From an uncultured Candidatus Sumerlaeota bacterium (GTDB taxonomy: Bacteria > Sumerlaeota > Sumerlaeia > SLMS01 > JAHLLQ01): a stretch of DNA of 54,354 nucleotides. A model generated the notes under the pieces. The model saw nothing but the letters and a program-made list of their open reading frames with translations, made no database searches and was not told the origin of the DNA. The stretch covers positions 1 to 54,354 of the forward strand of contig CAZVAQ010000004.1 in NCBI GenBank assembly GCA_964625145.1. Direction: 5' to 3'. Positions 28,635 to 35,654 of this stretch are shown one piece after another (the first letter of the stretch is position 1; every line of letters starts with the position of its first letter). The position numbers and the translations under genes are program-made.

Positions 28635-31600
28635 GTGGTGCCCGCCGAGACTCCCATGCCCCATCGCCCCCTCACTCCGGCCGGTCTGCTTTTCCTCGCA
28701 GTGCTAGATTTCGCCCTCCTGGCGATCGCCTGGTGTGCGGCCTATCTGGCAGTGCTTGGCTTCACGATCCCGTCCGAGGCGGAGGCGGACTACGTCTCCC
28801 AACTCCTGATTCTGCTGCCTTGGGTGGCGCTGTCCGGGGCTGTCCTGCTGACGCTGGCCCGGACCCGCCGCTTTGGCCTCCCCCCATCGGCGGCCGCCAT
28901 CGGCCAGGTCCTGCTCCCAATCCTCGGAGTTTCCCTCATTTGGGGGGCGTTCGCTGCTTGGGTCAAAGGCCAGGAGATATTCCTGCAACTGCCGCTGAAC
29001 GAGACGGCGGAGTTGGTGCTGCCCCTCCCCGGGGGCGTCGTGGCCCTGTTCAGCTTGTTCGGGATCCTTTTGGTCGGGGCGGTTCGCGGGGCAGGGTACT
29101 TGACAGCCCCCAAGGGCCCCGCCCCCGGCGATGCGCAGCCCAGCCCCGCCGTGCTGGTGGGATCCGGGCCTCTGGCGCGGTTGGTTGCCTCGGATCTGGC
29201 GGGATTGGCCCGCCCTGCGTGGAGACTTCTGGCAGCGGTGTCCCCGGAGAGCGAACGCACCGGCGCGGCCGTCGCCGGGCTTCGAGTGGCGGGGCGGCTG
29301 GAAATGCTCCCTCAGATGCTGGGAGAGACATCCGCGACCGCGGTTCTGGTTGTTCAGGACGAACATGAGCCCGCCCTGTTGCGGGAAGTCGTGCGGCGTT
29401 GCGAGGACTTCCCGGTGCGGCTGCTCATGGCCGAGCCGACGGCGGCCTCCTCGGCCGATTTGCGGCCCGTCCGCCTGCAGGACCTGATCGCCCGCAGACC
29501 GGTTGCCCTCCATGCGCCTGCCGAGCGGGGACCGTTCCGCGGCGAGCGCCTCCTGATCACCAATGCGGACACGCCCGCCGGGTTGGAGTTCGCCTGGCAG
29601 GCCGCCCGCGGCTTCCCGGCACTTATGATCCTGCACGGATCTTCCGAGGATGCGCTCGCCCGGTGTGCGCTGCGAATTCGGCGAGAACATCCCAGCCTGC
29701 CGGTGGAGACTGTCCTGGCGGGAATACAGGATCCGGATTCGTTCGATGCGGCGGTTCGCCCCTTGGAGCCTACCGCCCTCATCCATGCGTTCCCGCTGCA
29801 CCGCGTTGATTATGCCGAGCGCTTCCCGGCACATGCCATCGAGCTGACCGTTCTGGGCACGGCGACGGTGGCGGAGTTGGCGCGCGACTTGAAGTTTCAC
29901 CGCACGGTTTTCCTCTCCAGCGTGAAGGCGGTCTATCCGGTCGGCGTGCTGGGTGCGTGCCTGCGCTTGACCGAGCAGATCGCGTGGCGCTTGGGGCGCG
30001 ATGTGGAGCACTCGGTCCAGGTGGTGCGGCTCCCCACGTTGGTGGGAGGGGGATTTTCGGCGCTTGAAGTTTTTGAAGACCAGGCACGCAACGGCAAGAG
30101 CCTGACTATTTCGCATCCCGATGCCACGCGGTTGTATCTGGGAGTCGAGGAGGCCGTTGATCGCGCGCTGCAGGCCCTGAGCGCTCACGCCGGCAACGGG
30201 CGGTTGTTCCTGGTGGATCCGGGCGATCCGGTGCGCGTCGCGGATCTGGCGCGCGCCGCGGCCAGCCTGGCTGGCAAGCGCCCCGGCAAGGACCTGACGA
30301 TCACCTATACCGGCATAGGGCCCGGCGAAAAGCTGCGCGAGGAGATCTCCACGCGGGGCGAGGAGTTGCTACCGACGGAAGTCAGCGGTGTGCTGATGGT
30401 GCAGCCGCGAGAGGTTCCCGACCGCGATCGCTTGTTCGATGGCATGGCAGGATTGGGCGAGATGATCCCCCACGCCAGCCGCGAGGAGTTGCTGCTGGCG
30501 CTGCGGGAATTGGTCCCGGAATTCCACCCGGCTGACTTGCCGGAGCGCGAGGACTCCGAGGCCTTTCTGTCCGACAAGTTCTCCCCTGCCGGGACGGAGC
30601 AAGCGACAGCCGAATCCGACGATCAGGATTGGCCGGGCGAGATGGAGCCCAGCGAGCAGGAAGCTCCGGACTTCGAACATTATGAAGCGGAGGCAGACGA
30701 ATCCGCGAATCAACCGGGGATCGAAACACAATCGGACATCGAGGATGAAGAGCTGGAGCCGTTGGCACTGGGGCAGGCAAGCGATCAGGAAGAACGGCCG
30801 CTGAAGATCACACGTCGGCCGGTCATCTTCATGGATCTGGAGGAAGGGCAGGCTGCAGAAGAAGGGGCCGCGAAAGAGGAAGCGGGCGAGGAGATCCTCG
30901 AGGAATCTCACTCTCCCGAACTGGAGCCGGAGGAGGCGGTGCAGCCCTTGACATCCTCACCGGCGGCGACCGAAGAACACGCCCCCGGAATGGAGACTTC
31001 CTCCGCCGCGGTGCCGGAGACGGAACAAGAGTTCCTGTTTCCGGATTGGCTGCTGGAAGATGACGTCACTCCGGCTGCGCCAGACTCAGCAACTCCGGAG
31101 CCCGTCGACCAGGAAAAGTCCCCCGATCTTGTGGAGTCATCCACACCATCATCCCCCCAGAAGGAAGATCAAATGAACGAGCAGTTTGCCGAGCTGAAGT
31201 CCCGTGGAAAGCTGGAAGTCAAGCCCTTGTCGCCACTTCCCGCAGAGGCTGACATCGTCCTGCTTGTCTTCATGGAGGGTCTGAGCGCCGCGCGTCAGCG
31301 CGAAGTGCTGGAGCATGCGGAAGAGCGCTTCCCGGACGATATCCACTTCCTTTTCGCCGGCCTGCATCCCGACGCGCCGATTCCTGCCTCGTTGGACGAA
31401 CGCGCCCGCGGGCTGGATCCGTCGATCCCTGCGGGGGCAAAGCTGTGGAACGCGGCCCTGGAGGCATCACCGGAGAACGCGCTGCTGTTGTCCTTCCCGC
31501 CGCGCGTGGAATTCCACGCGGGCTTCTTCAAGACGCTGCGCGATTTTGCGGCGCAACACCGTGAGTCGGTGCTCTTCTACGCCGATCACATCGAGCGGAA

Positions 31601-32741
31601 GGGCGACAAGGAAACCGAGGTCCGCGTGCATGACCACAACGGCTGCCCGCACGAGCGATTCGAGTTCGGCCCCGTGATCATCTATCGCACGGCGGCATTG
31701 AATGCCATCGGCGGGTTTGACGAATCGCTGGTGCATGCATGGGAGTACGATGCGCACCTGAAGCTGATGGTGGAGGGTTACTTCACGCGCATCCCCGGCC
31801 CGCTGTACACGGCCAATGAAGAGGTGGTCGACTCCCAGTCCTCCGCCTTGCACTCGCCGGGACGCGGACCATTGGGCGGCTTCTCCTATGTGTTCTATCC
31901 GGAGGAGATGGATCGCGAAGTGACCAAGGTTTTCGAGCGCGCCTTGCGCAAGGTCGGCGCGTGGATTAACCACGACACGGTTCCCGTGCCCCAGCCCGCG
32001 ACCAAGCCGGAAGTCATGGCCTCCGTTGTGATCCCGGTCCTGAACCGTGTGAAGTATATCGGCAACGCGATCGACAAGGTCCGGGAGGGGACGTTCCAGG
32101 ACTTCGAGGTGATCGTCGTGGACAACGGCTCCACCGATGGAACGTGGGAGCTGCTCGAGGAGTACACGAAGCGTGATCCTCGGATCCGATTGCTCCGCGG
32201 CAAGGGGAGCACGATCGCGTCGGCGTTGAACGAGGCCATCCGCGCCTCACGCGGGAAGTACATCTGCCAGCTCGACAGCGACGACCAGTACGCCCCCACC
32301 ACGCTGGAGAAGATGATCGGCCACTTGGAATCGCACCCCAAGTGCGGGCTGGCCATCAGCTACTACCGGTTGATGGACGAAACAGGCAAGGTCATCGATG
32401 ATGTGGCACCAATCACGCACTCGGGTTACTCGCGGAACCAGATCCTGCGGCGTGACGGTGCCGGTGCGGTCCGGATCTTCCCCAAATCGGTCCTTGAGGA
32501 GTTCGGACTGTACGATGAGGAACACTACGGCAACTTCGGCGAGGACTATGACATGGTCCTCAAGACCGGCGAGAAGTACGATGTGGACCTGGTGCACGAG
32601 GTGCTGTACTTCTATCGCCGTCACTCGGACAACACCGATGTGATCCGGGATCCGGAGATGAAGTATCACAACAAGAACCGGGCGCGACAGATGGCGCTGC
32701 GGCGGCGGATGAAGATCAATGAGGAACTCGGCAAGCTCTGA
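28635..32741 (+). CDS. multidomain membrane protein: TM region + degenerate CapD/PglF/WbpM-like domain + acidic linker + divergent GT-A-like region + family-2 glycosyltransferase
   Basis: 1368-aa ORF (GTG 28635; ATG 28656 is an alternative start). N-terminal hydrophobic helices. The Polysacc_synt_2-like region is recognisable from RPVRLQDLIARRPV...GPGEKLREE. A Glu/Asp/Pro-rich linker spans about 30540-31180. C-terminal GT2 domain: VVIPVLNRVKYIGNAI...EVIVVDNGSTDGT...ICQLDSDDQY. Confidence 0.75.
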   Translation: MVPAETPMPHRPLTPAGLLFLAVLDFALLAIAWCAAYLAVLGFTIPSEAEADYVSQLLILLPWVALSGAVLLTLARTRRFGLPPSAAAIGQVLLPILGVSLIWGAFAAWVKGQEIFLQLPLNETAELVLPLPGGVVALFSLFGILLVGAVRGAGYLTAPKGPAPGDAQPSPAVLVGSGPLARLVASDLAGLARPAWRLLAAVSPESERTGAAVAGLRVAGRLEMLPQMLGETSATAVLVVQDEHEPALLREVVRRCEDFPVRLLMAEPTAASSADLRPVRLQDLIARRPVALHAPAERGPFRGERLLITNADTPAGLEFAWQAARGFPALMILHGSSEDALARCALRIRREHPSLPVETVLAGIQDPDSFDAAVRPLEPTALIHAFPLHRVDYAERFPAHAIELTVLGTATVAELARDLKFHRTVFLSSVKAVYPVGVLGACLRLTEQIAWRLGRDVEHSVQVVRLPTLVGGGFSALEVFEDQARNGKSLTISHPDATRLYLGVEEAVDRALQALSAHAGNGRLFLVDPGDPVRVADLARAAASLAGKRPGKDLTITYTGIGPGEKLREEISTRGEELLPTEVSGVLMVQPREVPDRDRLFDGMAGLGEMIPHASREELLLALRELVPEFHPADLPEREDSEAFLSDKFSPAGTEQATAESDDQDWPGEMEPSEQEAPDFEHYEAEADESANQPGIETQSDIEDEELEPLALGQASDQEERPLKITRRPVIFMDLEEGQAAEEGAAKEEAGEEILEESHSPELEPEEAVQPLTSSPAATEEHAPGMETSSAAVPETEQEFLFPDWLLEDDVTPAAPDSATPEPVDQEKSPDLVESSTPSSPQKEDQMNEQFAELKSRGKLEVKPLSPLPAEADIVLLVFMEGLSAARQREVLEHAEERFPDDIHFLFAGLHPDAPIPASLDERARGLDPSIPAGAKLWNAALEASPENALLLSFPPRVEFHAGFFKTLRDFAAQHRESVLFYADHIERKGDKETEVRVHDHNGCPHERFEFGPVIIYRTAALNAIGGFDESLVHAWEYDAHLKLMVEGYFTRIPGPLYTANEEVVDSQSSALHSPGRGPLGGFSYVFYPEEMDREVTKVFERALRKVGAWINHDTVPVPQPATKPEVMASVVIPVLNRVKYIGNAIDKVREGTFQDFEVIVVDNGSTDGTWELLEEYTKRDPRIRLLRGKGSTIASALNEAIRASRGKYICQLDSDDQYAPTTLEKMIGHLESHPKCGLAISYYRLMDETGKVIDDVAPITHSGYSRNQILRRDGAGAVRIFPKSVLEEFGLYDEEHYGNFGEDYDMVLKTGEKYDVDLVHEVLYFYRRHSDNTDVIRDPEMKYHNKNRARQMALRRRMKINEELGKL

Positions 32742-34092
32742 CAGACGCCTTCGGCGCATCCTGAGTTCGGCAGCCATGGCTCCAGTAGTCATGGCTGCCG
32801 TCATCTTTTGGAGCGGTTGTACGGATACCGGCGACGCATCGGCGTCGCTGACGCCCCATCGCGTCCGCCCCACCACGTTTGAGATCGCCCTGGAGGAAGC
32901 GGGGACGGTCGAGGCCACGCGCGTCATCTCCATCACGGCCCCCGAATCGGCGCGACTGATCTTCCTGCCGGACACGGGAGCCATGGTGAAAACCGGTGAG
33001 GTGATTGCCCAACTGGAGACACAGCAGGCCGAGGAGACTCTCCAACAGCGCCTGAACGAGTTGCAGTCGGTGAAGGCCGACCTGGAAGCGACGATCGAGT
33101 CCCTTCAGGTGGCATTGCGCGAGAACACGCTCAACCGCGACCTGGCCCAATCGGAACTGGAGTTCAGCACATTGCGGCTTCAGGACGTGAAGGTGCGGCT
33201 AGCGGAGACGGAGGTCCTGCTGGAAAGTGCCGTCGTCCCCGAGGATGATGTGCGGACTGCGCAATACAATGTGGATTCGACACGGCTTAGCACTGTGACG
33301 ACGGACCTGTCACTGCGCTCGCAGGTGGCCACCAATGTCCAGGGGCGGGCGGAGTGGATGTCAAACATCGCCCGCAATGAATTGCGCGGCAGGCGGGCCC
33401 TGCGCGTTCTGGGACAGGCCCAGCGCGAGATTGAGCAGGCCACGATCCGATCTCCAATCGATGGCATTTTCATCCGCGCCCGTTATTGGGACCATCGGCA
33501 ACGCGCCATGGCAGAGCCACGCCCGGGCGAGGACATTCGCAGGGGCCAGGCACTGGGCACCATACCGGATCTCAACTCGTTGGTGGTGAGGACCCAGATT
33601 CCCGAGTCGTATCTCCTGCGCGTGCAGCCGGGCACACGGGCGGTGGTGGAGTTTGATGCCCATGACGATCTGGCATTGGAGGGTCAGGTGGTCTCCATCG
33701 GCAATGTCGCCATCGACCGGGAATCGAGTGCCGGCGGTGCCATCATCCAGACAGAGAGTTACTCCGGCCAGAAGGTCTTTGAGGTCCTGATCAAGTTCGA
33801 TGATGTGGATACCCGCCTGCGGCCCGGCATTACGGCGCAGGTGCGAATCCTCCTCGATAGCCGCAAGGGGGTGCTCACGATTCCCGTCGAGGCCATCGTG
33901 CCCGACGAGAAGGTATCGAGCGTCCTTGTCATGGATTCCAACAACAAGCCTCAGCTTCGGCAGATCAAGGTGGGTGACCACAATGGCTCCGAAGTGATCG
34001 TGCTGGAGGGGCTGAATGCCGGGGAGATAGTGGGAGTTCGGGGGTCGGCCAACAGGGATCAGGCTTCCGCGGGAAGACGAAGAAGCGGCTGA
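32719..34092 (+). CDS. HlyD-family membrane-fusion (periplasmic adaptor) lipoprotein, paralog 1
   Basis: 457-aa ORF that overlaps the giant gene's 3' end by 23 nt. Lipobox-like AAVIFWSGC. Lipoyl-like hairpin, long coiled coil, beta-barrel segment (IRSPIDGIF...) and membrane-proximal domain typical of adaptors. Confidence 0.75.
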   Translation: MRNSASSDRRLRRILSSAAMAPVVMAAVIFWSGCTDTGDASASLTPHRVRPTTFEIALEEAGTVEATRVISITAPESARLIFLPDTGAMVKTGEVIAQLETQQAEETLQQRLNELQSVKADLEATIESLQVALRENTLNRDLAQSELEFSTLRLQDVKVRLAETEVLLESAVVPEDDVRTAQYNVDSTRLSTVTTDLSLRSQVATNVQGRAEWMSNIARNELRGRRALRVLGQAQREIEQATIRSPIDGIFIRARYWDHRQRAMAEPRPGEDIRRGQALGTIPDLNSLVVRTQIPESYLLRVQPGTRAVVEFDAHDDLALEGQVVSIGNVAIDRESSAGGAIIQTESYSGQKVFEVLIKFDDVDTRLRPGITAQVRILLDSRKGVLTIPVEAIVPDEKVSSVLVMDSNNKPQLRQIKVGDHNGSEVIVLEGLNAGEIVGVRGSANRDQASAGRRRSG

Positions 34093-34295
34093 GCCTTGGG
34101 GGGGCAGATTGACCTGGCCTCTTGCCACGGCAATTGATGCGCGCCGCCTATTCCCCTAGGGGGGGTGAGGCGGCGCGAACTATGCATGGAGGTGTGTGGT
34201 GGGGAACGGTGCCACGGCACCGCGATTCCCTTTGCTTCCGGCAGATGGGAAATCACCTTTTGAAGCCAGCATTTTAGCCACGGGCCTTTCATATC

Positions 34296-35654
34296 ATGAC
34301 ACAACGGTACCATTCAACTTCCGATCCTGACCGGCGGTCGGTGCTGCGCCCCTTGGCGCACCTTGCCACAGCGGTGTGTGTCGTATTGGCCCTGTGGGGG
34401 TGCTCCAACCAAGCGGATCCCGCGGCGCAGTATGATCGCCTTGTTGTGAGGAAGGGTACCTTTGAGGTTACCCTGGAAGAGGCCGGGACGGTGCAGGCCA
34501 CGCGGGTGGAATCGATCATCCTGCCCATGAGTGGCCGCCTGATCTATCTTCCCTCCACGGGGACGCCGGTGAAGCAGGGTGATATCATCGTTCAATTGGA
34601 GACGCAGCAGGCGGAGGAGACTCTGGAGCAGCGGCTTAATGAGCTCAAGTCGCTGGAGGCCGAGCTTCAGTCCACGATCGAATCGCTGCAGGTGGCGCTC
34701 CGCGAGAACACGCTGAACCGCGATCTGGCGGAATCGGAGCTGGAGTTTAGTACCCTGCGCCTTCAGGACGTGAAGGTGCGTTTGGCGGAGACAGAGGTGC
34801 TACTCGAGCGTGCCGTGGTTCCCGAGGACGACCTGCGCGAGGCGTCGTACAATGTGGATTCCACGCGCATGAGCACTGTGACGACGGATCTGGCTCTTCG
34901 CTCGCAGATTGCAACCGGAGTGCAGGAGCGTTCCGACCGCATGTCGGCGATCAGCCGTGCGGAATTGCAGGGGCGGCGGGCATTGAGGTTTCTTCTGCGG
35001 GCTCAGGATGACCTGCAACAGGCAACGATCCGGGCACCGATCAATGGGATATTCCTGCGCACGAGCCGATGGGATTGGCAGTCGCGGAGCATGCGCGAAC
35101 CGCAGCCGGGTGAGGAAGTGCTGCGCCGGCAGGAAGTCGGGCAGATTCCCGATCTGGACTCTTTGATCGTCAGGACCCAAATTCCGGAATCGTACCTGTT
35201 GCGGGTGAGCAAAGGCAAGCCGGCCACGGTGAGTTTTGATGCGCACGATGGATTGCACAGCACTGGCGTGGTGAAGTCGATCGGCAATGTCGCGATCAAC
35301 CGTGAGGAAAGTGCCGGTGGCGCCATCGTTCAGACCGACCAGGCTTCCGGCCAGAAGGTCTTTGAAGTGGAGGTCGCCCTGGATGAAGTGGATCCACGCC
35401 TGCGCCCGGGGATCACCGCCCAGGTGAAATTCGTGCTTGAGAGACACGAGGATGTCATAACAGTTCCCATCCGGGCCGTGAGGACCGATGGGGCGGATTC
35501 TCGAGTGGCGGTCCTGAGGCCCGACGGCAAGGTCGAGCAACGGACGGTGACGCTCGGCATGCACAACGAAATGGATGTCATCGTGCTGGATGGGCTTTCA
35601 GCGGGCGAGGTCGTGGGCTTGCCCCGGCAGTTGATCGGAAATCCTTCCACCTAG
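34296..35654 (+). CDS. HlyD-family membrane-fusion (periplasmic adaptor) lipoprotein, paralog 2
   Basis: 452-aa ORF with lipobox-like VLALWGC. Collinear with paralog 1 and near-identical through the coiled coil (QLETQQAEETL.QRLNEL...TIESLQVALRENTLNRDLA.SELEFSTLRLQDVKVRLAETEVLLE.AVVPEDD). Confidence 0.75.
   Translation: MTQRYHSTSDPDRRSVLRPLAHLATAVCVVLALWGCSNQADPAAQYDRLVVRKGTFEVTLEEAGTVQATRVESIILPMSGRLIYLPSTGTPVKQGDIIVQLETQQAEETLEQRLNELKSLEAELQSTIESLQVALRENTLNRDLAESELEFSTLRLQDVKVRLAETEVLLERAVVPEDDLREASYNVDSTRMSTVTTDLALRSQIATGVQERSDRMSAISRAELQGRRALRFLLRAQDDLQQATIRAPINGIFLRTSRWDWQSRSMREPQPGEEVLRRQEVGQIPDLDSLIVRTQIPESYLLRVSKGKPATVSFDAHDGLHSTGVVKSIGNVAINREESAGGAIVQTDQASGQKVFEVEVALDEVDPRLRPGITAQVKFVLERHEDVITVPIRAVRTDGADSRVAVLRPDGKVEQRTVTLGMHNEMDVIVLDGLSAGEVVGLPRQLIGNPST

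Follow-up and report, generated by a model that had tools for sequence, protein, structure and literature searches.

Predicted loss of catalysis in a PglF-like dehydratase module that stays fused to a twin glycosyltransferase module in Candidatus Sumerlaeota

PglF of C. jejuni and WbpM of P. aeruginosa are membrane-bound UDP-N-acetylglucosamine (UDP-GlcNAc) 4,6-dehydratases that combine four transmembrane (TM) helices, a domain of unknown function (DUF) and an extended short-chain dehydrogenase/reductase (SDR) domain. The soluble domains of such enzymes are fully active alone, and the reason for their membrane anchoring is unexplained (PMC8987622). The module of four TM helices (4TMH) and DUF is common to PglF-like dehydratases and to the large phosphoglycosyl transferases, WbaP among them (PMC10942596). 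Here we describe a gene in a stretch of 54,354 nucleotides from an uncultured Candidatus Sumerlaeota bacterium (hereafter the window; contig CAZVAQ010000004.1 of assembly GCA_964625145.1). Its product shares the 4TMH, DUF and extended SDR parts with PglF and WbpM, and carries ~730 additional C-terminal residues made up of an acidic linker and two glycosyltransferase (GT) domains of the GT-A fold. Where PglF and WbpM have a nicotinamide adenine dinucleotide (phosphate) [NAD(P)] loop, a catalytic Asp, an Mx3K dyad and a substrate loop, this protein has replacements at each site, and it is predicted to be inactive as a dehydratase. The fusion family to which it belongs is known, in that its members are deposited in databases, and the system as such is not new in kind; what is new is the apparently dead form of the enzyme, which our trees indicate arose twice.

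The open reading frame (ORF; 28635 to 32741, on the forward strand, as are all features given below) encodes 1368 residues from a GTG start, or the 1361-residue form found in databases from an alternative ATG at 28656, and contains zero internal stops. GC content is 58-74% throughout the gene; all that sets the linker apart is a positive AT skew, in line with its abundant Glu and Asp residues. Pfam places Polysacc_synt_2 (PF02719) at residues 307-589, over profile positions 2-291 of 293 (E 3.3e-41; 141.8 bits against a cut-off of 20.2), and Glycos_transf_2 (PF00535) at residues 1130-1245 (E 1.3e-33; 116.8 bits against 23.3). Scanned as separate pieces, the N-terminal 277 residues, the linker and the first GT-A domain gave zero Pfam matches even at E 10, and an NCBIfam scan of the protein found no equivalog above cut-off, the top model being TuaG (83.8 bits against 400). 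The original prediction had read this ORF as a single gene in five parts; the open frame, the domain parsing and collinear relatives all agree, and the five-part protein is one real gene with a genuine architecture.

Homology to the PglF/WbpM family, by sequence and by fold, spans the entire SDR domain (residues 277-604; 29463 to 30446). Among proteins of solved structure, PglF (WlaL) from C. jejuni is the closest in sequence (PDB 5bju; E 2e-32 over those residues), and it also ranks first in a Foldseek search with the AlphaFold2 model (target-normalised template-modelling (TM) score 0.89-0.90, root mean square deviation (rmsd) ~2.5 A), and both proteins fall in the class that lacks the catalytic Tyr. 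The signature of the PglF class is TDKxnMx3K, in which Thr395/Asp396 and Lys397 are catalytic (PMC8987622). A residue-by-residue alignment to PglF agrees with the register in which these motifs were originally read as replaced. At the former NAD(P)-binding glycine loop (29559 to 29588), TNADTPAGLE stands where the family has TGAGGSIGSE, and the TGxxGxxG pattern, which 39 relatives carry as TGAGGSIG, is lost to TNADTPAG. The former catalytic stretch (29916 to 29963) reads SSVKAVYPVGVLGACL against the family's S[ST]DKAVxPxSVMGATK, with Asp replaced by Val, Met by Leu and Lys by Leu, such that [ST]-D-K has become S-V-K and MGATK has become LGACL, i.e., Lx3L in place of Mx3K. The former substrate loop (30024 to 30059) is VRLPTLVGGGFS where the family has VRFGNVLGSRGS, the core RFGNVLGSRGS having become RLPTLVGGGFS, and the YFMT and AAAHKHV motifs are likewise replaced in the window's genus. 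Laid against PglF, the stretches VLVSGAGGTIGSE, ISTDKAVRPTNIMGCTKR, VRFGNVLGSSGS and HAAAYKHVPLCEQNP pair with LLITNADTPAGLE, LSSVKAVYPVGVLGACLR, VRLPTLVGGGFS and HAFPLHRVDYAERFP of the window protein, respectively. The PGEK motif, R499, K431 and S428 are retained.

These replacements are concentrated in one domain. In 39 intact relatives, 96 SDR positions show conservation of at least 95%; of these, 51 survive in the window protein and 36 in the second-lineage protein P0043, introduced below. Both proteins keep 36/36 and 109/111 of the conserved positions in the GT domains. Pfam SDR scores run from 347 to 372 bits in intact fused copies, against 147 and 132 in the window's genus (g1) and 88 and 85 in a second genus (g18). 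The SDR domain of the window protein is 30-38% identical to its intact relatives, and between intact proteins identity is 45% or more (mean ~58%). Judged from these alignments, the degeneracy is far beyond chance, and dehydratase activity has most likely been lost.

The fusion itself is widespread. A search of 5.8 billion proteins yielded 42 that share this architecture, and those named to organism are mostly Sumerlaeota or Sumerlaeia. In a survey of 75 species genomes of Sumerlaeota, the fused form, with open frames of ~1265-2137 residues, occupies the window's order (families f1-f4), whereas family f15 has a stand-alone twin-GT gene of ~500-590 residues and a PglF-like gene of ~650 residues elsewhere in the genome. 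The window protein has the collinear five-part layout and is placed inside the fusion family on trees. Its same-order relatives (e.g., P0004-P0042) share the layout, the acidic linker and a downstream gene for an HlyD-type adaptor, and their GT2 domains are 62-88% identical to that of the window protein, but they keep all of the dehydratase motifs. An architecture that had first looked like a one-off is thus the ordinary gene form across one Sumerlaeota order, normally with an intact dehydratase, and the suggested search for it in other genomes found it throughout that order. Public labels for these proteins include 'SDR family NAD(P)-dependent oxidoreductase' and 'FlaA1/EpsC-like NDP-sugar epimerase/GT2 family glycosyltransferase'; the former is probably wrong for the degenerate members. 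We found no experimental study of the same-order fused proteins in the literature, and nothing relevant on a dehydratase pseudoenzyme fused to a GT or on Sumerlaeota glycosyltransferases.

Among 42 aligned proteins, 39 keep GAGGSIGSE, AAAHKHV, S[ST]DKAV...MGATKR and RFGNVLGSRGS, and the three that deviate are the window protein, P0003 (72% identical to it, and closely related to the window's genus) and P0043, the last with different residues. At the level of genomes, 20 of the order's 24 carry intact motifs (one genome per species), and the degenerate ones occur only in genus g1 (G000, which is the window's genome, and G031) and genus g18 (G051 and G052, the latter the source of P0043). A tree of the C-terminal module alone requires two state changes, with the degenerate clades split by branches of 97% support, and the replacement is identical at only 6 of the 35 positions lost in both lineages. 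On this phylogenetic evidence, the dehydratase degenerated twice independently, in g1 and in g18. Replacement of the domain by a foreign SDR was considered and is unlikely, as the degenerate domains fall among fused and not among stand-alone proteins and are nearest to fused relatives of the same family, on an SDR tree that is poorly resolved around them (and in which the branch of the stand-alone G069 entry was disregarded as a wrong ORF). Two replacements are convergent between the genera: the Lys of Mx3K has become Leu at residue 443 (29961 to 29963), and the Gly of RFGN has become Pro at residue 467 (30033 to 30035). The SDR domain of G051 keeps a glycine-rich loop, GGGGALG, and given this loop g1 and g18 (G051 and G052, loci L049 and L039) may differ in residual NAD binding.

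Despite its losses, the degenerate domain evolves under constraint. We estimated the ratio of nonsynonymous to synonymous substitution (dN/dS) by the Nei-Gojobori method for G000 against G031, with dS near saturation and the ratios therefore approximate: 0.15 for the SDR domain, 0.18 for the TM helices, 0.16 for the DUF, 0.34 for the linker, 0.10 for the first GT-A domain and 0.07 for the GT2 domain. The SDR ratio for the g18 pair is 0.27. Within the g1 pair the SDR domains are 73% identical (dN 0.23), and in two control pairs of intact same-genus proteins at equal GT2 divergence (88-89% identity) they are 72% and 71% identical (dN 0.23 and 0.24). The rate of the degenerate SDR domain in g1 is therefore indistinguishable from that of intact SDR domains in sister genera. 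Between the window protein and P0003, identity is 81% for the SDR domain, 84% for the first GT-A domain, 88% for the GT2 domain and 46% for the linker. On the SDR tree, the stems of the degenerate clades are long (3.1 and 6.0 changes per site) and the tips normal (0.2-0.4), which points to a burst of change followed by ordinary constraint. The N-terminal half (~1.9 kb) is free of stops and frameshifts in all five sequences examined (four degenerate genomes and P0003). The attributes that define a pseudoenzyme, namely homology to an enzyme, loss of catalytic and cofactor residues, and purifying selection, are all found here, and on these grounds we regard the SDR domain as a putative pseudoenzyme maintained by selection.

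No replacement enzyme came to light. A second strong Polysacc_synt_2 match was sought in G000, G031, G051 and G052 and none was found, all other matches scoring at most 75 bits; in G000 (91.5% complete) the ORF is the sole full-length match. A match on contig C242 of G000 (74.6 bits) was rejected as a second dehydratase, being an ordinary YxxxK SDR that adjoins a nucleotidyltransferase gene. Judging from gene content, PglF-type activity has most likely disappeared entirely from g1 and g18. DegT/PglE-type aminotransferases occur in 25/25 genomes of the order, with three in G000, like several intact relatives, and PglD_N is absent from 25/25.

The 500 residues of the C-terminal module correspond to a full-length member of a family of stand-alone twin GT-A proteins, at 40-60% identity. 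Over 1000 such proteins of ~500 residues are found in databases, from Sumerlaeota, Calditrichota, KSB1, Deferribacteres, Bacteroidota and other phyla, and we found no experimental characterisation of them in the literature. Unlike the window protein, they have no dehydratase, no membrane anchor of their own and no adjoining adaptor gene, and the neighbourhoods of the stand-alone genes (in Calditrichota and Sumerlaea) show no consistent pathway. AlphaFold2, run with 51 stand-alone homologues, models residues 869-1368 as two GT-A domains (predicted local distance difference test (pLDDT) 90.7, predicted template-modelling score (pTM) 0.88). The top PDB match over both domains in Foldseek is the chondroitin polymerase K4CP (PDB 2z86; E 6e-26), and GT2 enzymes matched over a single domain, e.g., SpsA, TarS, WrtF and PmHS2, correspond to the second domain.

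The GT2 domain (residues 1127-1368; 32013 to 32738), delimited by Pfam and the family alignment, shows every feature expected of its class: the PF00535 match, a GT-A fold, the DXD motif and, within DxGS, the nucleotide-binding Asp. DNGSTDGT (residues 1163-1170; 32121 to 32144) and DSDD (residues 1214-1217; 32274 to 32285) are invariant in the family, and DNGSTD and DSDD are accompanied in this domain by >60 further invariant positions. The first GT-A domain (~residues 873-1108; 31251 to 31958), recognised by AlphaFold2, Foldseek and profile-profile comparison, has neither DXD nor DNGS. It aligns with the second domain at E 1.9e-25 in a profile-profile comparison, with SFPP opposite DSDD and FAGLH opposite VDNGS, and the window copy also lacks the Asp of DxGS. 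Since DXD is missing from the first domain in all 52 aligned family members, which have LPP, LPE or PPD instead, its absence is an ancient trait and not specific to the window. We infer that the first domain is probably an old, diverged and non-catalytic duplicate of the GT2 domain, and that the GT2 domain alone looks catalytically competent. The divergent GT-A-like region and the intact GT2 domain of the original prediction are both confirmed by these data. In Sumerlaeota, the first domain of fused and stand-alone proteins has a conserved HxGC/AxHER motif, which most other phyla lack.

Tandem GT-A domains are also the layout of K4CP (sequence match E 1e-26) and of PmHS2-type polymerases. Both GT-A domains of K4CP are catalytic, each with a DXD motif. 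The window protein has DXD in its second domain only (SFPP in the first, with LPP or LPE across the family), and the orientation of its domains differs from that in K4CP (TM score 0.41, rmsd 21 A); nothing points to a polymerase activity.

The four TM helices (residues 15-40, 48-77, 84-110 and 133-157; 28677 to 29105), identified in the AlphaFold2 model and by hydropathy, are followed by a Rossmann-like, CoA_binding_3-like DUF (residues 170-266; 29142 to 29432), which reproduces the layout of the PglF/WbpM class. The model of residues 1-625, comprising the helices, the Rossmann-like domain and the SDR domain, has a pLDDT of 88.3. The window DUF retains 6/6 family-conserved positions; PF13727 is matched by intact relatives and not by the window protein, and residues 24-267 give a weak match to NCBIfam TIGR03025, the N-terminal part of polyprenyl glycosylphosphotransferases. 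The large phosphoglycosyl transferases WbaP and WcaJ share the N-terminal 4TMH and DUF, but their Bac_transf catalytic domain is absent from the window protein. The acidic linker of the original prediction is present but longer than first delimited: its extent is 235 residues to 31244 (residues 636-870; 30540 to 31244), not ~210 residues to ~31180. Asp+Glu make up 28% of this Pro-, Ser- and Thr-rich and presumably disordered stretch, Pro 11% and Ser+Thr 14%; its net charge is -53, and neither tandem repeats nor Pfam matches were found within it. Every fused relative has such a linker, of 97-593 residues (shorter only in fragments), 19-39% acidic and with a net charge of -24 to -136.

Taken as a whole, the gene product would be an inner-membrane, cytoplasm-facing glycan-assembly protein. 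The family layout joins a 4TMH, a DUF and a PglF-type UDP-GlcNAc 4,6-dehydratase, through an acidic and flexible tether, to a DXD-less GT-A domain and an active GT2 domain. In g1 the glycine loop for NAD(P), the catalytic Asp, Mx3K and the substrate loop are lost; change was concentrated on the stem branch, after which the SDR domain came back under ordinary purifying selection. One GT2-type sugar transfer would be the sole chemistry remaining. Because the dead SDR domain is still under purifying selection, we think it probable that the N-terminal half is kept for a non-catalytic job, in which the pseudoenzyme anchors or scaffolds the GT module. This half would hold that module at the membrane as an anchor, an oligomerisation platform or a scaffold, possibly in partnership with co-transcribed HlyD-type adaptor lipoproteins. 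The original prediction had suggested an NDP-sugar binding or scaffolding module; scaffolding is the best reading, and sugar binding is doubtful, as degeneration extends to RFGNVLGSRGS in the substrate loop and to YFMT.

Several points weigh against the anchor or scaffold reading. Inactivity is predicted from motif loss alone, and the retained Lys431 and Ser428 leave room for unusual residual chemistry. The AlphaFold2 models owe most to the intact homologues among the aligned sequences, so that the N-terminal model shows that the sequence is compatible with the fold and is no proof that the degenerate domain folds. With dS near saturation, the selection estimates are only approximate; the metagenome-assembled genomes (MAGs) are 83-91% complete, which makes the absence of a second dehydratase probabilistic; and a search for co-lost pathway genes in the order's 25 genomes gave nothing informative. 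The link to the adaptors is one of synteny only, and six fusion genomes have no adaptor.

That synteny is a recurrent feature of the fusion. In the window, the gene is followed by two paralogous HlyD-type membrane-fusion (adaptor) genes and then by grpE. The first adaptor gene (32719 to 34092) overlaps the 3' end of the ORF by 23 nucleotides if its first ATG is used, and the second lies at 34296 to 35654. Of the 23 fusion genomes checked, 17 have an adaptor as the next gene downstream, on the same strand (the window at 32719-35654, and loci L010-L026, L037, L039 and L041), against 0 of 9 genomes with a stand-alone twin-GT gene. No pump gene adjoins the adaptors. It is conceivable, though we hold it only tentatively, that the PglF-like module is a conserved, non-enzymatic membrane platform that places the cytoplasmic GT and ties it to an HlyD-type adaptor spanning the periplasm, for glycan handover or export.

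The main rival to an anchor is regulatory ligand sensing, in which the degenerate domain would have gained a ligand-binding or regulatory function, e.g., the sensing of a nucleotide or UDP-sugar that tunes the GT. The strong constraint over the whole domain after the burst of change would suit this, as would the retention of PGEK, R499, K431 and S428 and the GGGGALG loop of G051. The neighbouring DUF, moreover, has been proposed to mediate feedback inhibition of the large phosphoglycosyl transferase WbaP by uridine monophosphate (UMP), with a comparable part in regulation suggested for PglF-like enzymes (PMC10942596). The RFGNVLGSRGS loop, YFMT and AAAHKHV are all replaced in the window's genus, however, and g1 and g18 show no convergence on a common new pocket. 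We consider this alternative rather unlikely.

A much poorer account is that the dehydratase half is in neutral decay, carried along only because it lies in frame upstream of an essential GT module. The apparent dispensability of the pathway activity, lost twice, speaks for such decay. The N-terminal half is open in all five sequences examined, however, dN/dS (0.15-0.27) is far below 1, the rate of change matches that of intact domains in sister genera, and the linker, which is weakly constrained, evolves faster (46% identity, dN/dS 0.34). Neutral decay is largely refuted by these observations and effectively excluded. Weakest of all is the artefact that the original prediction had allowed for, an assembly chimera or frameshift uniting separate genes across the linker: the linker is of low complexity and the genome a fragmented MAG of 329 contigs, but the collinear layout and acidic linker recur in >20 independently assembled genomes and ~40 database proteins (NCBI, JGI, ENA and Logan), among them the same-genus genome G031 (70% identity) and P0003 from a further assembly, and the linker has no tandem repeat, so that the possibility is negligible and an artefact effectively excluded.

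If catalysis was indeed lost twice while the module stayed under purifying selection and fused to a very strongly conserved GT, the two lineages supply comparative evidence that the module has a non-catalytic function. The degenerate members are natural variants that can be compared with their intact orthologues. Should the platform reading be true, function would outlive catalytic death, and two natural 'catalytic knock-outs' would test why PglF-like dehydratases have the 4TMH-DUF module in common with large phosphoglycosyl transferases. In other respects, the protein is an ordinary enzyme of envelope-glycan synthesis from a phylum without cultured members.

Some further observations concern relatives and neighbours of the gene. 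Larger relatives include a 2137-residue open frame in G042 (locus L055), P0040 with extra TPR matches and P0019 with a T2SSE (PF00437) match. Among stand-alone PglF-like genes of other Sumerlaeota families (G054, G056, G059, G007 and G021), several have one in-frame TGA, and that of G008 has one TAA; these could reflect gene boundaries, breaks or recoding. Locus L041 repeats the order fusion gene, adaptor, grpE seen in the window, and at the P0043 locus the fusion gene and adaptor are followed by GT1, MurJ-like, major facilitator superfamily (MFS) and WecG genes. Upstream of the ORF lies a trio of pilin-like genes, unrelated by Pfam. A promoter and terminator scan of the window locus added nothing significant. 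A hairpin of 14 base pairs with a T-rich tail (32768 to 32800) falls just within the first adaptor ORF at its 5' end, 27 nucleotides past the stop of the GT gene, and could modulate read-through between the two genes or represent palindromic signal-peptide codons.

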